Positions 4,241 to 60,497 of a stretch of 64,000 nucleotides of DNA are shown here, piece by piece; position 1 is the stretch's first letter, and every line of letters starts with the position of its first letter. The stretch lies in assembly GCA_030980935.1 (NCBI GenBank), contig GCA_030980935.1_3059.1, one strand, 5' to 3'. The notes beneath the pieces are model-generated. The model was given only the letters and a program-made list of their open reading frames with translations, was not told where the DNA came from and ran no database searches. This stretch comes from a phage. The position numbers and the translations under genes were made by a program.

Positions 4241-7200
4241 ATGGCTACTTTAAAACAAATACAATTTAAAAGAAGCAAAACCGCAGGTGCACGTCCTGCT
4301 GCTTCAGTATTAGCCGAAGGTGAATTGGCTATAAATTTAAAAGATAGAACAATTTTTACTAAAGACGATTCAGGAAATATCATTGACTTAAGCATTTCCG
4401 CTGGCGGTAATATTAGTGGAAATATCACTCAAACTGGCGATTATACACAGACTGGAAAATTTAATTTAATTGGTCCGCAAATTGTAGCAAGCGGTGGATA
4501 TATTGAGTTTAATTATCGTACTACTGGAAGTGGGGCTTGGTCCGGTCAACACACTGCAAAGGCTCCAATTTTTGTAGATTTAAGCTCAGCTACTTCCACA
4601 TCTGAATATAATCCTATAATTAAACAGCGCTTTAAAGATGGAACTTTTTCATTAGGTACTTTAGTTTCTGAAGGTTCGTTGAAGATTCATTATATCAATG
4701 AATCTGGCGATTCGAAATATTGGACGTTTCGACGTGACGGCGGATTTGTTGTTGACGGTGGAGGTTTAGCAGTATCAGGAGGTAGTATAACTACATCTGG
4801 AAATATTGCAGCTCTCGGAAATATTACTTCGCCTCAGATTAATACTAAAAATATTATTTTAGATACAAAAGCATTTGGACAATATGATTCACAGTCATTA
4901 GTTCAATATGTTTATCCTGGAACAGGTGAAGAAAATGGCATAAACTATCTTCGTAAAGTTCGAGCTAAATCAGGCGGAACTATTTACCATGAAATCGCTT
5001 CAGCTCAAACTGGTAAGAATGATGAAATTTCTTGGTGGACCGGAAATACACTTACTACTAAATTAATGGGTCTTCGTAATGATGGCGCAATGGTATTACG
5101 TCGTTCACTTGCTATTGGCACAATTACCACTGACGAAAATACTAACAACTATGGTTCTCCTACTCCAATGGGAGAAAGATATATTGCTTTGGGCGATGCT
5201 GCCACTGGTTTAAAATACATTAAGCAGGGCGTTTATGATTTAGTAGGTAATTGGAATTCTGTTGCGTCTATTACTCCTGATAGTTTCCGTAGTACTCGTA
5301 AAGCGATATTTGGACGTTCAGAAGACCAAGGTGGAACATGGATTATGCCTGGAACTAACGCTGCGCTTTTATCAGTTCAAACTCAAGCTGATGGAAACTC
5401 CGCTGGTGATGGTCAAACACACATTGGATATAATTCTGGCGGTAAAATGAACCACTATTTTCGTGGTACAGGTCAGATGAATATCAATACCCAACAGGGT
5501 ATGGAAATTAATCCAGGAGTGTTAAAATTAACCACTGGGGCAAATAATGTAATGTTATACGCGGACGGCGGTATTACATCTGTTAAGCAGCTTTCAATAT
5601 ACAATGGGGTGTATTTAGCAGCTAATAATTCTACTGCTGGGCTAACATTCGCTCCAACTACTACAATTGATGGCACTAAGCAAATTTTGTGGGAAGGCGG
5701 TACTCGTGCTGGTCAGAATAAAAGCTATGTAACTGTTAAAGCATGGGGTAATTCATTTAACGCATCTGGCGATCGTAATCGTGAAACGGTTTTTGAAGTA
5801 GCTGATGGACAAGGATATTATTTTTATTCACAGCGTGTGGCTCCAAGTGGCTCTGAAACTACTGGGCCTGTTGTAACCCAGTTCAATGGACAAGTTAATG
5901 CTAGAGGAAGTATTATTACTGACGGAAGTTTTAAAGTTAATGGATTAAGCACTTTAGTCGGTAATGTTACTATGTCTAATGGTTTGTTTGTCCAAGGTGG
6001 TTCTTCTATTACTGGACAGGTAAAAATTGGTGGAACGGCTGATGCATTAAGAATTTGGAATGCTGAATACGGTGCTATTTTCCGTCGTTCTGAAGATAAG
6101 TTTTATATTATTCCAACCCCACAGAATGCGGGTGAATCAGGCGGCATTTCTAATTTACGTCCGTTCTATATTACATTAAGTAATGGTAAAGTTTCCATGG
6201 ATCATGATGTAGATATCGGCGGCGGTAGATTTAAAGTAGAAGTGGCTGGAACTACTGCTAATCAACGCATAACAGTAAATATGGCATCAGATGCTATTAG
6301 AATAAATGCTCCAACACAAGAGTCTTCTAACTTCATTCAAGGACGTAAGGCTGATGTGCCTAAATGGTATTTGGGTATTGGCGATGGCGGCAACGTCGTT
6401 CGTATGCACAGCTACACATATTCACATGGTATTGCATTAAATTCTGATTCTGTCGATATTACTAAGCCTTTTAAAGTCGGAAATGCACAATTAGGAACTG
6501 ACGGTAATATTACCGGTGGTTCAGGAAACTTTGCTAATTTAAACAGTACAATTGAATCATTAAAAACCGATATTGTTTCAAGTTATCCTATTGGAGCTCC
6601 TATTCCATGGCCAACGGATACTCCTCCTGACGGTTACGCTATTATGGAAGGCCAGACTTTTGATAAGTCTGCATACCCAAAATTGGCTATGGCTTACCCA
6701 TCTGGCGTAATTCCAGATATGCGCGGGCAAACTATTAAAGGTAAACCAAGTGGTCGAGCTGTATTAAGCGCAGAAGCCGATGGTGTTAAGGCTCATAGCC
6801 ATAGTGCATCGGCTTCAAGTACTGACTTGGGTACTAAAACTACATCAAGCTTTGATTATGGTACTAAAACATCTTCAAGCTTTGATTATGGTACTAAGAC
6901 TAGTAACACCACAGGAAACCATAACCATACAGTGAGTGGTAATACTAGTTCCGCCGGTGCGCACCAACACAACGAAGGGACGTATTTTTCATCGTACGGA
7001 TACTTTATGAACGGATACAATACTCGCCAGTCATCGGGAGCTGCCATCGAAACATCCAATAGACAAGGCATAGCGTTTTATGGTAAAACCTCTAGTGCTG
7101 GTGCCCACACTCATAGTTGGTCAGGAACCACGAGTACTACAGGTAACCATGCTCATACTGTAGGTATAGGTGCTCATACCCATACTGTAGGTATAGGTGC

Positions 7201-37704: not shown

Positions 37705-39132
37705 CTAAAATTTTAATTCATTTGCCAAAGCATCTAACTGTGCTCGAGTGGATTCATTTCTTTGATAGCGATTCTGTTCAGCCTGAATCTGTTGTGAACC
37801 TGCTACTTCACTCACTTCAGTTGGAGTAGAATCTTGTTCAATTTCTACCCATTTCTGATTTCCCTTTTGAACACCCATCAAAAACTTATTCCACTTATTC
37901 TTATCGCCATATCGTGATTTGATTTGCTTAATGAGTTGTTGTTCAGCAGCTGCTAGCTCCTCGGTTTCAATGACCGCAAGCATAAAATCAGCTGTTGCTG
38001 GAAGACCAGCAGATTCTGCGATATCACTCATGTTAACATCGGAAGAGTCCCAAGCTTGTTTACCAACCTGTGCTGCAGTCCAAAGAACAGTTTCGGTTTC
38101 AACAGCAAGAGCACGCAATTCCTCTGCAATAGCTTTAACAGTTGTGTAACTATTTTCTGAGTAAACTCTGATGCGGCAAGATTTACAAATACCTAGATAG
38201 TCGACAATAATGATTGTTGGAACAAAATTCTTTTTGAGCTTCAATTCATTCAAGAGAGACCTGAATGTGTTAGCATCTGCCCCACCAGTAGGGTACTGTT
38301 TAACAATTAAACGACCGAGAGTAGATTTCTCACGCCATTTTTCCATTTTTCCTTTATACTCAGCGTAAGAAATATGCCCATCATCAATGTCATCAAGAGA
38401 AACATCGAGCATATTAGCGTCAATACGTTTAGCACAGACTTCTTCTGCCATTTCCATGGAGATATAAAGAACGTTATGTCCAAGCTGTAAATAATCTGCT
38501 GCTAATGAACACAATCCTAATGATTTACCAACGTTAACGCCAGCCATTAAAACGTTCAGTGTTCCAGTTTCAGCTCCGCCTTTAGTAATTTTGTTTAGAA
38601 TTCTGAGTTTAAATGGAACCTTACGAGCTTTATTCATATAAGATAGCCAACGTGCTTCGTAGTCATCCATCCAATCATGACCAACGTAACTATCAAATGA
38701 AATTGATAATGCTTGGCGCATGATGTCAGGAATAGCACCAACATCCGGCATTTTCTTATTTCGTTTTTCCGGAGGAAGCTCAGCATTAGTTTGAATTTCG
38801 ATTATTTTAGACGTAGCATTAAACATCGCCCTTTGCTGAACATATTTTTCTGTTTCTTTTATTAACCAACTGTGGTCTTCCGGAGAATCAGCTAGTTTTG
38901 AAATAAGTGTTTTTACACCAGAATATTCTGTTTCCGTAAATGAACTATTTTCTAATGCAACATTTAACGCATTAATAGATGGAACGCTATGATACTCATT
39001 GACATGAGATTTAATTAATTTGAATGTATTTTTAGCTGGACCACTTTCAAAATATTCTGAATCCATATATGGCCAAACTTTTGAAAAATAAGCTTGATCA
39101 AATATGAGATGAGAAAGAATAATTTCTACCAC
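37705..39132 (-). CDS. 41: Replicative DNA helicase gp41 (DnaB-like)
   Basis: 475 aa as T4 gp41; Walker A GVNVGKS. Confidence 0.9.
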   Translation of the reverse strand: MVEIILSHLIFDQAYFSKVWPYMDSEYFESGPAKNTFKLIKSHVNEYHSVPSINALNVALENSSFTETEYSGVKTLISKLADSPEDHSWLIKETEKYVQQRAMFNATSKIIEIQTNAELPPEKRNKKMPDVGAIPDIMRQALSISFDSYVGHDWMDDYEARWLSYMNKARKVPFKLRILNKITKGGAETGTLNVLMAGVNVGKSLGLCSLAADYLQLGHNVLYISMEMAEEVCAKRIDANMLDVSLDDIDDGHISYAEYKGKMEKWREKSTLGRLIVKQYPTGGADANTFRSLLNELKLKKNFVPTIIIVDYLGICKSCRIRVYSENSYTTVKAIAEELRALAVETETVLWTAAQVGKQAWDSSDVNMSDIAESAGLPATADFMLAVIETEELAAAEQQLIKQIKSRYGDKNKWNKFLMGVQKGNQKWVEIEQDSTPTEVSEVAGSQQIQAEQNRYQRNESTRAQLDALANELKF

Positions 39133-39141
39133 ACTTACTCC

Positions 39142-39504
39142 TTAAAAGAATTTAAACTTTTTCTTTGACCTTTTATTAAATGCATCTTGTAGTTGCATTG
39201 TAATACATTTTTCTACATGAGGAGCTAACTCAGCTTTTCTTTCTTGGTCAAGAACAGCAAAGTCCATTACGACTTTTCCATTAACCCAATCTAATTTTGT
39301 CACATACACAATGTGTGTAGAACCATCTTCTAGTTTAATGACAATCTCCTGGATAACATTTTCCATGGCAGATTTAATTATCTTAAGAGACTCATTAAAA
39401 AGACGTTCTTTTCTTTCTTCTTCCCCCTCCGAAGAGGGGGATTCATCGATAATTTCTAGATCTAAATCTAAATCATCTTTATTCATTAAATTCTTCCATA
39501 TCAC
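39142..39504 (-). CDS. 40: gp40-like head assembly protein
   Basis: 120 aa, position between 41 and uvsX; internal CCCCUC-UUCG-GAGGGG hairpin. Confidence 0.55.
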   Translation of the reverse strand: MIWKNLMNKDDLDLDLEIIDESPSSEGEEERKERLFNESLKIIKSAMENVIQEIVIKLEDGSTHIVYVTKLDWVNGKVVMDFAVLDQERKAELAPHVEKCITMQLQDAFNKRSKKKFKFF

Positions 39505-40660
39505 TTAACTGCTCGAGGTCAGTTTCTAAATCAGCAGCTGATTTACTTTTACTTTCTGGAGATTTAAATTTTTCAACCTTTGAGTTAATCAATTCATCAA
39601 CTTCAGCTTCAACAATTTCATTACTATCAATAGCACCTAACTGATAAGCACGTTTAATAGCATCTCGGAATGGTTGATGCTTAAATAAAGGACCCCAGAA
39701 TGTAGTGCAGTTGGTATCTTTTGCACGCCAAGATTTTTCTTCGCGAATCATCTCGCCGGTTTCTTCATCAAGAAATTCACGAGCATACCAACCATTTTTA
39801 GGTTTTACCACGAATCCTAATTCTAGAGCCATATCTAACAATCCAGAATAAGGATCGATACCGCCGTCAAATTTAACATCAATAAAGAATTTACTTTTTT
39901 CTTTAACGGTACGAGATTTTTCTACATTTAGAACAAATTGATACCCTTGAAGATCAGAACCATCTTTAATTTGACGTTTACCGATAATGAATACAGTATC
40001 AGCCGAATACATTACGCCTGTACCACCTGTCATCACGGTTTTACTAAACATTTCAATTGTTTCAATTGTATGGTTAACCGCAACACATGGAATATTTTTA
40101 ATGCTAAAATAAGGAGTAACAATACGGAATAATGACTTCAGTGATTTAGCACGAGTCATATCTGCCACAGATTTTTCATTCAAGGCGTCTTCCGTTTCTT
40201 TCTTAGAAGCCATATTACCGATTGAGTCGATGAATACAATAACTTTTTCACCGCGCTCAATAGCTTCAAGCTGATTCACCATATCAATTTTCAGCTGTTC
40301 AACTGACTGGATTGGCGTATGAATTACTCGTTCCGGGTCAACTCCCATGGATCGCAAATAAGCTGGAGTAATACCAAATTCGCTATCATAGAATAGACAA
40401 ACCGCGTCAGGATATTTGTTCAAATATGCCGCAACCATAGTCAAAGACATATTTGATTTAAAGTGTTTAGAAGGCCCTGCGAAAATAGTTAAACCAGACT
40501 GCATGCCGCCATCAATCGCACCAGAAATAGCAATATTAAGCATTGGGATTTTTGTACGGATTACATCCTTTTCATTAAAGAATTTAGATGTAGTCAGTTC
40601 AGCAGTCATTTTAGAAGTGGAAGCTTTAATCAAACGGGATTTTAAATCTGCAATAGACAT
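39479..40660 (-). CDS. uvsX: Recombinase UvsX (RecA-like)
   Basis: 393 aa; RecA fold motifs, Walker A GPSKHFKS. Confidence 0.9.
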   Translation of the reverse strand: MSIADLKSRLIKASTSKMTAELTTSKFFNEKDVIRTKIPMLNIAISGAIDGGMQSGLTIFAGPSKHFKSNMSLTMVAAYLNKYPDAVCLFYDSEFGITPAYLRSMGVDPERVIHTPIQSVEQLKIDMVNQLEAIERGEKVIVFIDSIGNMASKKETEDALNEKSVADMTRAKSLKSLFRIVTPYFSIKNIPCVAVNHTIETIEMFSKTVMTGGTGVMYSADTVFIIGKRQIKDGSDLQGYQFVLNVEKSRTVKEKSKFFIDVKFDGGIDPYSGLLDMALELGFVVKPKNGWYAREFLDEETGEMIREEKSWRAKDTNCTTFWGPLFKHQPFRDAIKRAYQLGAIDSNEIVEAEVDELINSKVEKFKSPESKSKSAADLETDLEQLSDMEEFNE

Positions 40661-40737
40661 TCATTTTTTCCATAGGCATCATTATATTTTCCTCACTGGT
40701 TAAAGATAGAGTAATTATAACACAATAAATTTAGGCA

Positions 40738-41586
40738 TTAATCAACTGCTATTGGATGAATAGCATTAAACTTATGAAATGCTTCTGATTTTTCTTTACG
40801 CGAAACACACATGCGAAGAACCTTTAATGGCTCGTCTTCTTCACCCAACGATTTTCGTTTTTCAATATTCGATGTTTTCCAACGAGCTTGCTCTGGAAAC
40901 TCTCTATTGATCTGCTCAAGCGCTCTATTATGTTTAGAATTACTACGAATTGAACTGCACCCGCCAGGAGCTTGTGCTTTTCCAGATACAACCAGATATT
41001 TGAACAAGGCCAAATGCGGATAACCTTGATTAATTAAATTGAGAAATGCATACATATCTTCGCACAAATCAATTTTTCCATACCCAATTTGTTCTGTCGT
41101 AAGTTTTCCAAGGTCATACCATGTATTCGTGAATCCATATGAATTTTCACGATAATTACCCCAAGATGAAGTAATTTTAAAAATTGGTAGGCGAGCATGA
41201 CCATGATAATACCCGCAATCCATGGCATCTTCGACGTATTGAATCAATTCATAGAACTGTTCATGAGTCAATTGATTGACTTTATCTACACATCGGCGAT
41301 CATCTCTTTTTCGCATTGAACTCATACGAATAGTAGTATCATCGTCAATCATCCAGATTCGTTGACCTGCATACATATCAGTAATTGCTTTACGAGTACC
41401 GGCAATTCCGTTTACATCATCAGGAATAGTTATAATTTTAGCTCTAGACCCATAAGCATCATAATAAGCTTTTTCTTCGTGTTCACGCACTACAATATGG
41501 GGTTCATAATCAGTCGGAAACATATCAAGGGCAGAAACTGCCCCAACACGCTGATAGCTTGGAATTACGAATTGAATCATTTCCAC
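40738..41586 (-). CDS. GT-A-type glycosyltransferase at the beta-gt locus (not T4 beta-gt; possibly T2/T6-type beta-alpha-gt)
   Basis: 282 aa; DxD motif IWMIDDDTTIR; occupies the slot between uvsX and gene 42. Confidence 0.55.
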   Translation of the reverse strand: MEMIQFVIPSYQRVGAVSALDMFPTDYEPHIVVREHEEKAYYDAYGSRAKIITIPDDVNGIAGTRKAITDMYAGQRIWMIDDDTTIRMSSMRKRDDRRCVDKVNQLTHEQFYELIQYVEDAMDCGYYHGHARLPIFKITSSWGNYRENSYGFTNTWYDLGKLTTEQIGYGKIDLCEDMYAFLNLINQGYPHLALFKYLVVSGKAQAPGGCSSIRSNSKHNRALEQINREFPEQARWKTSNIEKRKSLGEEDEPLKVLRMCVSRKEKSEAFHKFNAIHPIAVD

Positions 41587-42317
41587 TCACCGTTATAGTC
41601 TTTTTTCACAATATGAGTTTCGCCAGTATTCCACCAATGATCAACCAAGTAAAAATGACGAGAATATACATGAAGACTTCCAACATTCCATATAATAGAA
41701 CCTGCTTTATACTGACGAGTTGAATCGCCTGCATTCAAATCAGATACTAATTTATCTAGTACGTATTTTTGCCATGCGTAATCATTACGGAATCCGAAGA
41801 CCACGTCATTTGAGCGCATGCTTACTACTGCATTGACTTTCTTATCACGAATCAGGTACTGTACTGTATTAGTACACATGAAATCTGACATACCGTCTTT
41901 ATTGTAATCAAATTGCATGGATGGACGAGTATAAATCATGATACCACGTCGAGAATCAGGATTTTGACCAAGTTCAGCTAAACACATATCATACTGGGCA
42001 TAGTTATCTTCTGACCAAATAGCCCAACCATAATTCGAGTTAATTTCGCCTTTAGAAGATGCTACCTGCTGCCAAATCTTTGGTGTTTCACCTGGAATAT
42101 CTTTAACAAACAGACTTTGAGACTTGTACCATTCAAGTTCACGCTGAATGTATTCATCATTAAGAGCACCAAAAATAAAAGGTTCATCTGCTACAAATGA
42201 TGCGCCAATAATTTCAATAGTTTTAACACCGGTTTTATCAACTACGAAATCTTTTTCTTTTAATGCAAGCCCCAAATGAAGACGGATTTCTTCAACTGTC
42301 ATAGAGTCACTAATCAT
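41577..42317 (-). CDS. 42: dCMP hydroxymethylase gp42
   Basis: 246 aa as T4 gp42; thymidylate-synthase-like fold. Confidence 0.9.
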   Translation of the reverse strand: MISDSMTVEEIRLHLGLALKEKDFVVDKTGVKTIEIIGASFVADEPFIFGALNDEYIQRELEWYKSQSLFVKDIPGETPKIWQQVASSKGEINSNYGWAIWSEDNYAQYDMCLAELGQNPDSRRGIMIYTRPSMQFDYNKDGMSDFMCTNTVQYLIRDKKVNAVVSMRSNDVVFGFRNDYAWQKYVLDKLVSDLNAGDSTRQYKAGSIIWNVGSLHVYSRHFYLVDHWWNTGETHIVKKDYNGEWK

Positions 42318-42470
42318 TTAAACCTCAATTGATACATTCATATTTAAATTGTAACAGTAATAAACCCCAACCTAAAATAATAGTTGGAATCATAAGAGGA
42401 ACCGTTACACTATAGTATATACTTATTATAATCATCAAGATTAAAAGCAACACTGTTATAATTTTGCTTT

Positions 42471-42722
42471 TCATTCCTTCTCTCTGATGATAATTACCTG
42501 ATTTGGCTGTGCAGACTTTTTAGTTTCACCCGCAATTGACCAAATAAATGTAATAAACCAACCAATAATTGACCAGTTAAACAGTAAAGATGTGAAAAAG
42601 ATTCCTACTGTCGATTTTGACCCACGCATCAAGGCGATAAACCATGGAAGCATGTATATAATAATAGCCAACACACCTGAAACTAAAACCATAAAAATTG
42701 AACCTGCTACTAAAGTTTCCAT
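42471..42722 (-). CDS. imm: Superinfection immunity protein Imm
   Basis: 83 aa, two TM segments, position 42-imm-43. Confidence 0.8.
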   Translation of the reverse strand: METLVAGSIFMVLVSGVLAIIIYMLPWFIALMRGSKSTVGIFFTSLLFNWSIIGWFITFIWSIAGETKKSAQPNQVIIIREKE

Positions 42723-42729
42723 GTTTTCC

Positions 42730-43110
42730 TCACTTAGTCAAATTTTTTACGCATGAATTATAAGAATTCACTACATACTCCATCGGAGCATTTTTACCAG
42801 TACGCCATTGGTAATTATTGGCCCAATTAGCCCAAAGCTCGGCGCAGTAGTTTTCAATTTTTTCTTCGCGTGTAATTACATCCGAATTACGATATGCTTG
42901 AGCAGATTCATCTGGACGAATAGCTTCGTCAAAATTCGCCTGCATTTGTTCGACTGTTTGCTTTGGAGCTTCTTTATAACACTTGACATTAGGATTATAA
43001 AATTTGCTTGAACAGTTTACAATTTTTCCTGCATCAGACTGATTTACTACCGGTCCTTGAGCTACACAACCAGTAAGACCTAATGCAATAACCAAAATAG
43101 CGATTTTCAT
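42730..43110 (-). CDS. Putative lipoprotein (imm.1-like)
   Basis: 126 aa; signal peptide with lipobox LTGC. Confidence 0.55.
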   Translation of the reverse strand: MKIAILVIALGLTGCVAQGPVVNQSDAGKIVNCSSKFYNPNVKCYKEAPKQTVEQMQANFDEAIRPDESAQAYRNSDVITREEKIENYCAELWANWANNYQWRTGKNAPMEYVVNSYNSCVKNLTK

Positions 43111-43120
43111 AATAATTTCC

Positions 43121-43357
43121 TCAAATGCAAGTAGTAATTACTCCAGTAGTGCTTATGCAGGTATTACCCATTTGCACACCTAAAGATCCATTTGTATTCA
43201 CATGAAGATTATCATCAATTTTAACTGATATTTTACCATTAGTGTGAATAACGGTGCTAGATTTAATCACAGGTTGAGTATCATTTTCAACACTAACAAA
43301 TGGAACTGCTACTAATGCAACTAAACAAACTGCTAAGCATCCCATAACAATTTTCAT
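43121..43357 (-). CDS. Small secreted protein (78 aa)
   Basis: True start MKIVMGCLAVCLVALVAVPF after TTG artefact; signal peptide; own promoter cassette. Confidence 0.5.
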   Translation of the reverse strand: MKIVMGCLAVCLVALVAVPFVSVENDTQPVIKSSTVIHTNGKISVKIDDNLHVNTNGSLGVQMGNTCISTTGVITTCI

Positions 43358-43440
43358 TTTATTCTCCAAATCTGTATCAGTAGTTGATAGTTGTATAGTA
43401 CCATGGAAGAACAGTCTTGTAAACAGTTTTGTGAAAATTT
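43358..43440 (-). promoter_or_regulatory. Early promoter cassette (PeSL-like)
   Basis: Repeat copy with GTTTAC -35 and TACTAT -10-like elements; ends in GGAGAATAAAATG. Confidence 0.5.
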
Positions 43441-52968: not shown

Positions 52969-54171
52969 TTATTTTGTAATAATGTCAAACTGTTCTTTAA
53001 AGCAGAAGCTTGAATCTTGGTGCTGATACAAAAATTCATATGCTTTTTCTCGCTCACGGTCATAAAGAGCTCGGTCAGATGACAGTTCTTTAATACGTTC
53101 AAATGTTGATTCCATGTCATTTTCATCAAACCAAACGATACCGCTATCATGCGAAATTAGCGGAGTATTATCAACACGGAATTTTAAATTTTCGCCAGTA
53201 GATTTCCAAAATACCGGAATTGTTCCACATGCACCAAGCTCGAGATGAGTATATTCTAAAGAACGTTGTAGATATTTTTTATCCAACTTACTCAACTGAT
53301 AACCAAAACCGGATTTACTCATACGTTCAAGCATTTCGCTATTTACATAACGGTCAAGAATTTGCGTTGGCAAATTAGGAGCAATTTTAATTTGGTCTAC
53401 TTGATGAAGACGATAATACTCGTATGGAATTCCTTTTTCTTTAATAGGAATGAACGCTGGAGAACGTTCCAGACCTTCCATAATAGTACTTAGTCCTGCA
53501 GGTTTAAGATGTTTTTCGTGAAAATCAAACATCTGATAAAAACCTTTCCATGTAGTCGTACGACCAATCCAACGGTTGATATTCATGTTAATTTCAGAAA
53601 CATCTTTCCAGTAGGTTGATCGAACCTTCGCAATATCCATAGGAGGCTGAAAGTTATATACGGTCGGTGCTTCTTCAATATCATCAAACAGAGAAACTGT
53701 TTCTGGATACCATTCTTTCATCAAAACTTTATTAAAATCGCCATTATCAGAATGACTAAAAATAACATCAGCTCGACGAACAGTTTCTTCTAATCCCAAA
53801 TTTCGACGCAAAGAAAGAGAAGAATGGTCATGCTGATAAACTACAACACGAACAGAAGGTTTAATGTTATCAATAATTTTTTTATAGTTATTAATAGTGT
53901 CTTCTTCAACCGAAGTAGCAGGAACTGAATTGATAATTAGAATATCACAATCATTTACCAGCTTAAGTGTTTTATCGTATTCTTTTGCCAATAAAACCGG
54001 AATTGAAAATGATTTATAATCATGCGCGCAATTACGAGTAAATGATTTATCTTTAGCATAAACCAAAGTCACTTCATGACCATTTTTAATAAACCAATCA
54101 CGTTGCTCAAGAGAAAATTTAGTTACACCGCAACCTTCAAGACCTCGAGCCATAAAAATGCATACTTTCAT
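52969..54171 (-). CDS. a-gt: Alpha-glucosyltransferase (hmC DNA glucosylation)
   Basis: 400 aa; recognised as near-identical to T4 alpha-gt. Confidence 0.9.
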   Translation of the reverse strand: MKVCIFMARGLEGCGVTKFSLEQRDWFIKNGHEVTLVYAKDKSFTRNCAHDYKSFSIPVLLAKEYDKTLKLVNDCDILIINSVPATSVEEDTINNYKKIIDNIKPSVRVVVYQHDHSSLSLRRNLGLEETVRRADVIFSHSDNGDFNKVLMKEWYPETVSLFDDIEEAPTVYNFQPPMDIAKVRSTYWKDVSEINMNINRWIGRTTTWKGFYQMFDFHEKHLKPAGLSTIMEGLERSPAFIPIKEKGIPYEYYRLHQVDQIKIAPNLPTQILDRYVNSEMLERMSKSGFGYQLSKLDKKYLQRSLEYTHLELGACGTIPVFWKSTGENLKFRVDNTPLISHDSGIVWFDENDMESTFERIKELSSDRALYDREREKAYEFLYQHQDSSFCFKEQFDIITK

Positions 54172-54237
54172 TTAATATCCTCATTGTTTTGGTTTATTTT
54201 ACCAAAAATTTGTAAAGCAATATAGGAGCCGAAGCTC

Positions 54238-58212: not shown

Positions 58213-58683
58213 TTAATCATGTGTCCACACCCCATCGGTATTTGACCAAAGTCGCTGATTATCTGATCCTCGCCACAGCTTTTTGGTCGGAAGATTTTTC
58301 TCATACTTCCCATCAATAATAACATCAACATATTTAAGCATTTCTAGTTGTTTAATATCTTCAAACTTATATCCTGTCCACAACCAAATGCTTTTACTGG
58401 GATAAAGATTTTTTACTGTTTGAACGATGCAATGAATAACATCTCGGTTATCAGGATAGAGAGGGTCTCCTCCAGTTATAGTTAATCCTTCTATATAATC
58501 ATTATTCAAACATTCAATTAATTGTTCTAGTGTTTCACCAGTGAATGGAATACCATTTCTAGCATTCCATGTTGATTTATTATAACACCCTTCACATTTA
58601 TGCAAACAACCTGTAACGAAAAGAACGACCCTGCAACCAGGGCCATTCACAAAATCGCAAGGATAAAATCTATCATAATTCAT
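58213..58683 (-). CDS. nrdG: Anaerobic ribonucleotide reductase activating protein NrdG
   Basis: 156 aa; radical-SAM cysteine cluster CLHKCEGCYN. Confidence 0.9.
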   Translation of the reverse strand: MNYDRFYPCDFVNGPGCRVVLFVTGCLHKCEGCYNKSTWNARNGIPFTGETLEQLIECLNNDYIEGLTITGGDPLYPDNRDVIHCIVQTVKNLYPSKSIWLWTGYKFEDIKQLEMLKYVDVIIDGKYEKNLPTKKLWRGSDNQRLWSNTDGVWTHD

Positions 58684-60497
58684 TGGTGTTTAACCCTATG
58701 CATGATTTCTTTATTTTTACCGAGATTAAATCCGCGTTCGTTCGGATTTCCCAAATAACCACAAGTTCTTCTTATTGTGTTCATCTTTTTAGGATCAGTT
58801 TCTCCACAAATAGAACAAACAAACCCGTTTTCAGTAGGAGTCATTTCATGGGTACTTCCACACGTAAAACATTTATCTACTGGCATGTTAACACCAAAAT
58901 AATCTAAATGTTGTGCAGCATAATCCCATACAGCCTCAAGACCTTTTAGGTTATTTTTCATATCAGGAAGTTCAACATAAGAAATGTGACCGCCTGTCGC
59001 AATGAAATGATATGGGGCTTCGCGAGAAATCTTTTCAAACGGAGTAATATTTTCTTCTACTGAAACGTGGAAACTGTTAGTGTACCAGCCTTTATCAGTA
59101 ACATCCTTTACACTTCCATATTTCTCAGTATCAAGTTTACAGAAGCGATAACAAAGGTTTTCAGCAGGTGTAGAATACAAGCTAAAAGCAAAACCAGTTC
59201 TTTCAGTCCACTGCTTAAGACGAGCATTCATTTTAGTTAAAATTTCCTGTCCAATATCACGACCGACAAGAATATTCAATTCGTGAATACCAATGTATCC
59301 TAGGGACACTGAACTTCTACCGTTTTTAAATAACTCAATTATGTCATCATCAGGTTTAAGACGAACCCCGAATGCACCTTCTTGGTAAAGAATAGGAGCA
59401 ACAGTAGCTTTAACTCCTTTTAAGGAACTAATTCTACACATCAATGCTTCAAAACATAAATCCATTCGCTCATTGAACAATTCAGTAAATTTCTGTTCAT
59501 TGAACTGTGTTCCAATATAAGAATCTAACGCAATACGAGGAAGATTCAGTGTTACAACACCGAGATTATTACGTCCATCAAGAATTTCATTGCCAGTCGA
59601 ATCTTTCCATATGCTCAAGAAACTACGACAACCCATTGGAGAAACAGGAACAGATGAACCAGTGATAACTTTATTGTTCTTAGCTGAAATAATATCAGGA
59701 TACATTCTTTTGCTTGCGCACTCTAGAGCAAGCTGTTTAATATCATAGTTCGGATCGTCTTTATAAAGATTAACACCTTCTTCAACGAACATAACAAGCT
59801 TAGGGAAAATAGGAGTTATCCCATCACGACCGAGACCTTTAATACGATTTTTCAGAATTGCTTTCTGAATCATTCGTTCAGTCCAGTCAGTTCCTGTACC
59901 AAATGTAATTGTTACAAAAGGTGTTTGTCCGTTTGAACTAAAGAGAGTATTTACTTCATATTCATAAGCTTGGAATGCATCGTATACATCTTTTTCTGTT
60001 TTAGATTGAGCATAATTCAACGCATCAGCGATTTGCCATTTTTCTGCATCCTCAATATGTTTTGCATAGGTGCGTTTAACATAAGGAGAAAGTACTTTAT
60101 CTACATTAGCAAAAGTCGTTCCGCCGTATTGATGGGAAGCAACCTGTGCAGTAATTTGTGCCATAATTGCAGTAGCAACACCGATTGATTTAGGAGTTTC
60201 AATCTGTGCATTACCGAGCTTAAATCCGTTCTCAAGCATTCCTTTTAAATCTACTAAACAGCAATTAGTAAATGGAAGAGCAGGGGAATAATCAATATCA
60301 TGGAAATGAATAATTCCGCTTTCATGCGCTTTCATAATAAAAGACGGGACCATATTTTTGGCAATGTGTTTAGACACAATACCAGCCATAAGGTCCCGTT
60401 GAGTTGGAAAAACACGAGAATCTTTATTAGCATTCTCGTTCAAAAGGTCTTTATTAGTTTTATGAATCAATCCTTCAATTTCTTTTTCAATTGTCAT
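58680..60497 (-). CDS. nrdD: Anaerobic ribonucleoside-triphosphate reductase NrdD (uninterrupted)
   Basis: 605 aa continuous ORF; C-terminal glycyl-radical region; no intron. Confidence 0.9.
   Translation of the reverse strand: MTIEKEIEGLIHKTNKDLLNENANKDSRVFPTQRDLMAGIVSKHIAKNMVPSFIMKAHESGIIHFHDIDYSPALPFTNCCLVDLKGMLENGFKLGNAQIETPKSIGVATAIMAQITAQVASHQYGGTTFANVDKVLSPYVKRTYAKHIEDAEKWQIADALNYAQSKTEKDVYDAFQAYEYEVNTLFSSNGQTPFVTITFGTGTDWTERMIQKAILKNRIKGLGRDGITPIFPKLVMFVEEGVNLYKDDPNYDIKQLALECASKRMYPDIISAKNNKVITGSSVPVSPMGCRSFLSIWKDSTGNEILDGRNNLGVVTLNLPRIALDSYIGTQFNEQKFTELFNERMDLCFEALMCRISSLKGVKATVAPILYQEGAFGVRLKPDDDIIELFKNGRSSVSLGYIGIHELNILVGRDIGQEILTKMNARLKQWTERTGFAFSLYSTPAENLCYRFCKLDTEKYGSVKDVTDKGWYTNSFHVSVEENITPFEKISREAPYHFIATGGHISYVELPDMKNNLKGLEAVWDYAAQHLDYFGVNMPVDKCFTCGSTHEMTPTENGFVCSICGETDPKKMNTIRRTCGYLGNPNERGFNLGKNKEIMHRVKHQ

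Follow-up and report, generated by a model that had tools for sequence, protein, structure and literature searches.

We find that the single open reading frame (ORF) lying between uvsX and gene 42 in this phage DNA encodes, with high confidence, a T2/T6-type beta-alpha-glucosyltransferase (ba-gt, alias ggt or g-gt; a TET-associated glycosyltransferase, TAGT), and that the pathway to which it would belong leads to the predicted base gentiobiosyl-hmC. By the window we mean the whole stretch of phage DNA that was analysed, 64,000 nucleotides long. We stress that published work already covers this gene together with its location, fold class, distribution and phenotype, and that what we describe is a well-annotated, experimentally studied enzyme in its usual place.

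The six-frame ORF list contains a minus-strand ORF at 40738..41586, 282 aa when counted from a GTG, between a 393-aa ORF (39479..40660) and a 246-aa ORF (41577..42317); the last two were named as uvsX and gene 42 via the annotated records of AR1, T2, T6 and T4. This bears out the preliminary description, in which a single 282-aa ORF containing the motif IWMIDDDTTIR had been noted in the uvsX/gene 42 slot, except that the true coding sequence is likely to be 40738..41580 on the minus strand, with an ATG start and 280 aa. The annotations of T2, AR1 and QOTSP all begin the gene at the ATG corresponding to that at 41580, which overlaps the stop codon of gene 42 as ATGA and has GGTGAG upstream; given these annotations and the overlap, the GTG at 41586 was rejected as the start. 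The sequence reads ...GGTGAGTGGAAATGATTCAA..., and the motif occupies residues 75-85 of the protein. The features of the locus are as follows.

40738..41580, minus strand: ba-gt (beta-glucosyl-HMC-alpha-glucosyltransferase, TAGT family) coding sequence, 280 aa; from the ORF list, identity to AR1, T2 and T6, PF20691 and PHROG 842.
41338..41346, minus strand: DDD (DxD) motif, residues 79-81; presumed metal and UDP-sugar binding site of the GT-A fold.
41577..42317, minus strand: gene 42, encoding the dCMP hydroxymethylase that provides hmC; at the nucleotide level the region is 95.5% identical to that of T4 gene 42.
39479..40660, minus strand: uvsX, which borders the cassette on its downstream side; at the nucleotide level 89.8% identical to T4.
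40661..40737, minus strand: spacer of 77 bp separating ba-gt from uvsX, where T4 has segA.

The 77-bp spacer is identical in T2, T6 and AR1, and the order uvsX / ba-gt / 42 is common to T2, T6, AR1, QOTSP and the window; in the annotated T4 record the order is uvsX-segA-b-gt (351 aa)-42. Because the start of ba-gt overlaps the stop of gene 42, the two genes are probably co-transcribed and translationally coupled, the argument for co-transcription coming solely from the ATGA overlap. Between 40600 and 42500, a promoter scan gave 13 promoter-like sites where 8.3 were expected, and a terminator scan gave one terminator-like site where 0.9 were expected. The surrounding 12-kb region is 98% identical to the Tequatrovirus phages teqdroes, JK38, QOTSP, NR1, Solly, wV7 and AR1. 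Two further small ORFs lie close by on the minus strand. One, of 49 aa and hydrophobic, is found between gene 42 and imm (42325..42474); AR1 and QOTSP have it annotated, whereas the records of T4, T2 and T6 do not, despite conservation of the DNA at this place. The other, of 82 aa with a hydrophobic, signal-like N-terminus, is found between imm.1 and gene 43 (43121..43369) and is present in AR1 (ar1_049), T2 (T2_046) and QOTSP; T4 and T6 have nothing corresponding to this stretch, their homology being interrupted at 43110-43344.

The protein is orthologous over its full length to the T2 and T6 enzymes. It is identical at 280/280 residues to the AR1 product labelled "b-gt", at 278/280 to that of QOTSP, which has N24 and R106, and at 277/280 to the T2 enzyme (LC348380; locus positions 5295-6137 compared with 40738..41580 of the window), from which it differs by R11H, H106R and P251S (window residue first here and below). 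From T6 it differs by Y40N and D55G, plus one lesion specific to the stock in each public T6 record. The preliminary description had proposed a T2/T6-like beta-alpha (gentiobiosyl) glucosyltransferase and asked for a comparison with the T2 and T6 ba-gt proteins; that comparison, now run, gives 99% identity to both, and the two to three substitutions, together with the family assignments, support the proposal. Residues 3-207 cover positions 2-205 of the 205 in the profile of PF20691 (TAGT, TET-associated glycosyltransferase), scoring 39.1 bits where the gathering threshold is 27.5, and the protein matches PHROG 842, 'beta-glucosyl-HMC-alpha-glucosyltransferase', with an E-value of 6e-89. In addition to this full-length identity and family membership, the window places the gene between gene 42 and uvsX and contains both a-gt and gene 42.

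The lesions in the two T6 records differ from each other. In MH550421 (locus positions 5138-5980), CAG has become a TAG amber at codon 10 and the coding sequence is annotated from Met20, while in AP018814 (locus positions 5135-5974) one Asp of the invariant DDD is lost in frame. Both have the look of drift in laboratory stocks or of sequencing errors, given that T6 is the phage noted for about 72% gentiobiosyl-hmC.

In a database search we obtained 11 homologs of 98% down to 28% identity, nearly all with PF20691, and nine of them were aligned with the window protein (ten sequences, down to 32% identity). The DDD triplet and an N-terminal IPSYxR motif are invariant in this alignment, as are R11 and D175, the latter in an ED pair (174-175); E174 is kept in at least 90% of the aligned sequences, and P251 is likewise at least 90% conserved. 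A search of the PDB with the protein sequence gave no match at E-values up to 1; with no solved structure found by sequence, the fold class was therefore taken from a predicted model. The AlphaFold2 model built from the alignment has a mean pLDDT of 70 and a pTM of 0.72, a moderate confidence overall, with a confident N-terminal half and a poor region (residues 126-151) below pLDDT 50. Searched against the PDB with Foldseek, it matched solely GT-A glycosyltransferases and the related nucleotidyltransferase/nucleotide-diphospho-sugar transferase fold, among them WrtF, K4CP, PcManGT, TarP, TarS, DPMS and ABO transferases, with probabilities of 0.99-1.0 but E-values of about 1e-3. On this model, the predicted fold of ba-gt is GT-A, a single Rossmann-like nucleotide-sugar domain with the DxD after a central beta strand (E74-77). 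The T6 TAGT has likewise been modelled as GT-A (PMC13216743).

The possibility that the ORF is a true, though strongly diverged, T4-type beta-glucosyltransferase (GT-B, PF09198) had been named beforehand as the case that speaks against the gentiobiosyl reading. The ORF shares the genomic position of the T4 gene and several GenBank records label it 'b-gt', but a BLASTP comparison of the 280-aa protein with T4 beta-gt yields chance fragments, the best with an E-value of 0.28 over 10 residues; the Pfam family is PF20691, with no match to PF09198; the protein has 280 rather than 351 aa; the fold predicted for it is GT-A, and Foldseek gave no GT-B matches; and nucleotide homology to T4 is lost exactly over the cassette, ending at 40648, just inside the start of uvsX, and restarting where gene 42 ends, at 41595. 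BLASTP, Pfam and Foldseek thus rule out a diverged T4 b-gt, and we give this reading practically no probability. That the ORF does not resemble T4 beta-gt, and that segA is missing from the locus, had both been recognized in the preliminary description, and both observations stand: tblastn of T4 SegA and T4 beta-gt against the whole 64-kb window finds nothing better than an E-value of 1.6. As judged by these sequence searches, neither gene has moved elsewhere within the window.

Since homology to T4 is lost across 40648-41595, the whole cassette has been replaced. Its two flanks differ in their nucleotide identity to T4, 89.8% on the uvsX/gene 40 side (39002-40648) and 95.5% on the gene 42/imm side (41595-43110), and each shares about 97% identity with T2 and T6; the unequal T4 identity fits a history of mosaic recombination around a plastic locus. 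The window also lacks the T4 homing endonuclease genes mobB (beside a-gt, 54162-54187) and mobC (between nrdG and nrdD, 58683). In nrdD (58680..60497) a single ORF of 605 aa runs through without a break, so that the I-TevII intron, too, appears to be missing.

The acceptor for ba-gt would come from a second glucosyltransferase encoded elsewhere in the window.

52969..54171, minus strand: a-gt, alpha-glucosyltransferase, 400-aa ORF; makes the alpha-glucosyl-hmC acceptor for ba-gt.

This gene was initially taken to be near-identical to that of T4; the orthology holds, while the near-identity does not, as the protein is 91% identical to T4 (36 differences), 92% identical to T6 and 398/400 identical to QOTSP. 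Of the 36 differences from T4, eleven cluster at residues 254-269, a patch that sets the window apart from T6 too, and not from QOTSP, which suggests a swapped or fast-evolving surface segment.

The divergence of this a-gt allele, 8-9% from those of T4 and T6, bears on whether ba-gt might add another sugar or use another acceptor, for instance arabinose as in RB69-like Mosigvirus phages or bare hmC directly, and so give a modification other than that of T2 and T6; TAGT homologs also occur with a-GT, with b-GT or alone, and their specificity may vary (PMC13216743). Only two to three substitutions separate the window protein from the characterised T2 and T6 enzymes, however, and near-identical phages have measured gentiobiosyl-hmC (PMC13390438). 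In RB69, uvsX and gene 43 enclose an arabinose-related module. The 17-32 kb region of RB69 contains no homolog of the window ba-gt, and a comparison of nine proteins of the RB69 module (ORF003c left out) with the window gave the gene 42 homolog p048 as the sole match. With the arabinose module absent from the window and a ba-gt homolog absent from the RB69 region, RB69-type arabinosylation was rejected, and we regard a different sugar or acceptor in general as highly improbable. Of the two outcomes first entertained, the gentiobiosyl one is thus upheld, and the alternative of some other non-T4 secondary sugar is not needed.

For the gentiobiosyl reading we propose the following pathway, in which the chemistry is inferred from published work on orthologs, as are the degree of modification and the consequences for defence discussed below. 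The gene 42 product would make hydroxymethyl-dCMP, to be incorporated in the phage DNA as hmC; a-gt (GT-B) would then add glucose to hmC in alpha linkage; and ba-gt (GT-A), acting via its DxD and from the gene 42-uvsX slot that b-gt and segA hold in T4, would attach another glucose, donated by UDP-glucose, to the first through a beta-1,6 linkage to give gentiobiosyl-hmC. The DNA would then hold hmC, alpha-glucosyl-hmC and gentiobiosyl-hmC, with no beta-glucosyl-hmC. In T2 and T6, which lack b-gt, the enzyme glucosylates hmC that is already alpha-glucosylated, yielding gentiobiosyl-hmC (PMC13216743; PMC6024577). The second glucose may hide alpha-glucosyl-hmC from the defences by which it is recognized, the glycosylase Brig1 among them: a T6 ba-gt deletion mutant has alpha-glucosyl-hmC only, is more susceptible to Brig1 and has its DNA degraded by Brig1 (PMC11078745). 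BapA, for its part, frees glucose from the DNA of a T6 g-gt deletion mutant and not from T6 DNA (bioRxiv 10.64898/2026.02.25.707755), whereas GmrSD-family enzymes still cut gentiobiosylated DNA (PMC13216743; PMC13390438).

The expected extent of modification can be judged from close relatives. In the Durham Collection study, HPLC/MS of DNA from QOTSP, NR1, Solly and TB37 found about one-third hmC and two-thirds gentiobiosyl-hmC, with little alpha-glucosyl-hmC and no beta-glucosyl-hmC, a pattern credited to a-GT plus a TAGT at the position syntenic with T4 b-GT (PMC13390438). In the Durham phages EL, BGP and Geo the profile is 1:2:2, compared with 1:0:2 in QOTSP, NR1 and Solly. QOTSP, NR1, Solly and TB37 are among the closest relatives of the window, whose a-gt and ba-gt are 99.3-99.5% identical to those of QOTSP, and the gentiobiosyl-hmC measured in QOTSP further backs the reading given here. 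Gentiobiosyl-hmC is put at about 5% in T2 and about 72% in T6 in the literature quoted in PMC13390438 and bioRxiv 10.64898/2026.02.25.707755. As the T2 enzyme is 99% identical and yet associated with only about 5%, the presence of the gene alone does not set the level. It follows that the ortholog in the window might act at the low level of T2, leaving mostly alpha-monoglucosylated DNA with a few percent gentiobiosyl-hmC. We consider this unlikely, because the window does not have the two T2-specific changes R11H, at an invariant position, and P251S, at a conserved one; the third difference, H106R, is common to the highly gentiobiosylated QOTSP; and a-gt and ba-gt are nearly those of QOTSP. 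With near-identical enzymes and a measured profile, QOTSP offers, alongside T6, the best prediction, and the window phage is therefore most likely to have a T6/QOTSP-like profile with about two-thirds gentiobiosyl-hmC. We hypothesize that R11H and/or P251S could explain the low level in T2. A related and broader proposal, that the divergent a-gt (the 254-269 patch) and the consensus ba-gt together give a pattern or extent of mono- and di-glucosylation unlike both T2 and T6, and hence a distinct sensitivity to defences, seems to us decidedly doubtful, as does the possibility that positions R11 and P251 account for T2 (5%) versus T6 (72%).

The phage is thus predicted to be T6-like, not T4-like, in its DNA hypermodification, with gentiobiosyl-hmC and no beta-glucosyl-hmC. 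We would expect partial escape from enzymes of the Brig1 and BapA type, whose target is alpha-glucosyl-hmC, together with retained sensitivity to GmrSD/BrxU-type nucleases. Such predictions are of use for annotation and for the choice of therapeutic phages; they add nothing new. The preliminary description had implied that a non-T4 enzyme at this locus is rare, which proved wrong. A megablast search with the coding sequence matched about 475 phage records, all with at least 80% query coverage and with 90-99% nucleotide identity, many of them annotated beta-glucosyl-HMC-alpha-glucosyltransferase or beta-alpha-glucosyltransferase, whereas T4-type b-gt DNA was found in only 29 phage records, nearly all T4 or T4 derivatives. 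In a published survey (PMC13216743, NAR 2026), a TAGT accompanies either a-GT or b-GT in most genomes, a-GT plus TAGT being the common pairing, while a-GT and b-GT occur together in only 6 of 753 genomes, T4 and its close kin. Within Tequatrovirus the ba-gt arrangement is that of the majority, with T4 as the outlier.

Comparison with known systems places the window enzyme as follows. The arabinosyl-hmC of RB69 and Mosigvirus, made by a GT-B transferase (ORF003c) and an arabinose-nucleotide module, is an alternative cytosine sugar in T-even relatives and is encoded in the same plastic region; the RB69 region has no homolog of the window protein, and of the nine RB69 module proteins compared, the window has only the gene 42 homolog. 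The T4 b-gt (GT-B, PF09198, accompanied by SegA) occupies the same gene 42-uvsX slot, and like ba-gt it uses UDP-glucose and makes a beta linkage, so that it is also an inverting enzyme. It is nevertheless unrelated to ba-gt in sequence and fold, it acts on bare hmC whereas ba-gt would act on alpha-glucosyl-hmC, and its adjoining segA is missing from the window. The ba-gt of T2 and T6, by contrast, is like that of the window in its 280-aa length, gene 42-uvsX slot, ATGA overlap, downstream spacer, DDD and a-gt partner. Where the window has R11, H106 and P251, T2 has H, R and S, and where it has Y40 and D55, T6 has N and G; no functional difference can be argued for, beyond the fact that residues 11 and 251 of the window protein match the family consensus. 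Closest of all are the Tequatrovirus phages AR1, whose ba-gt protein is identical, and QOTSP, which matches the window at 278/280 residues in ba-gt and at 398/400 in a-gt.
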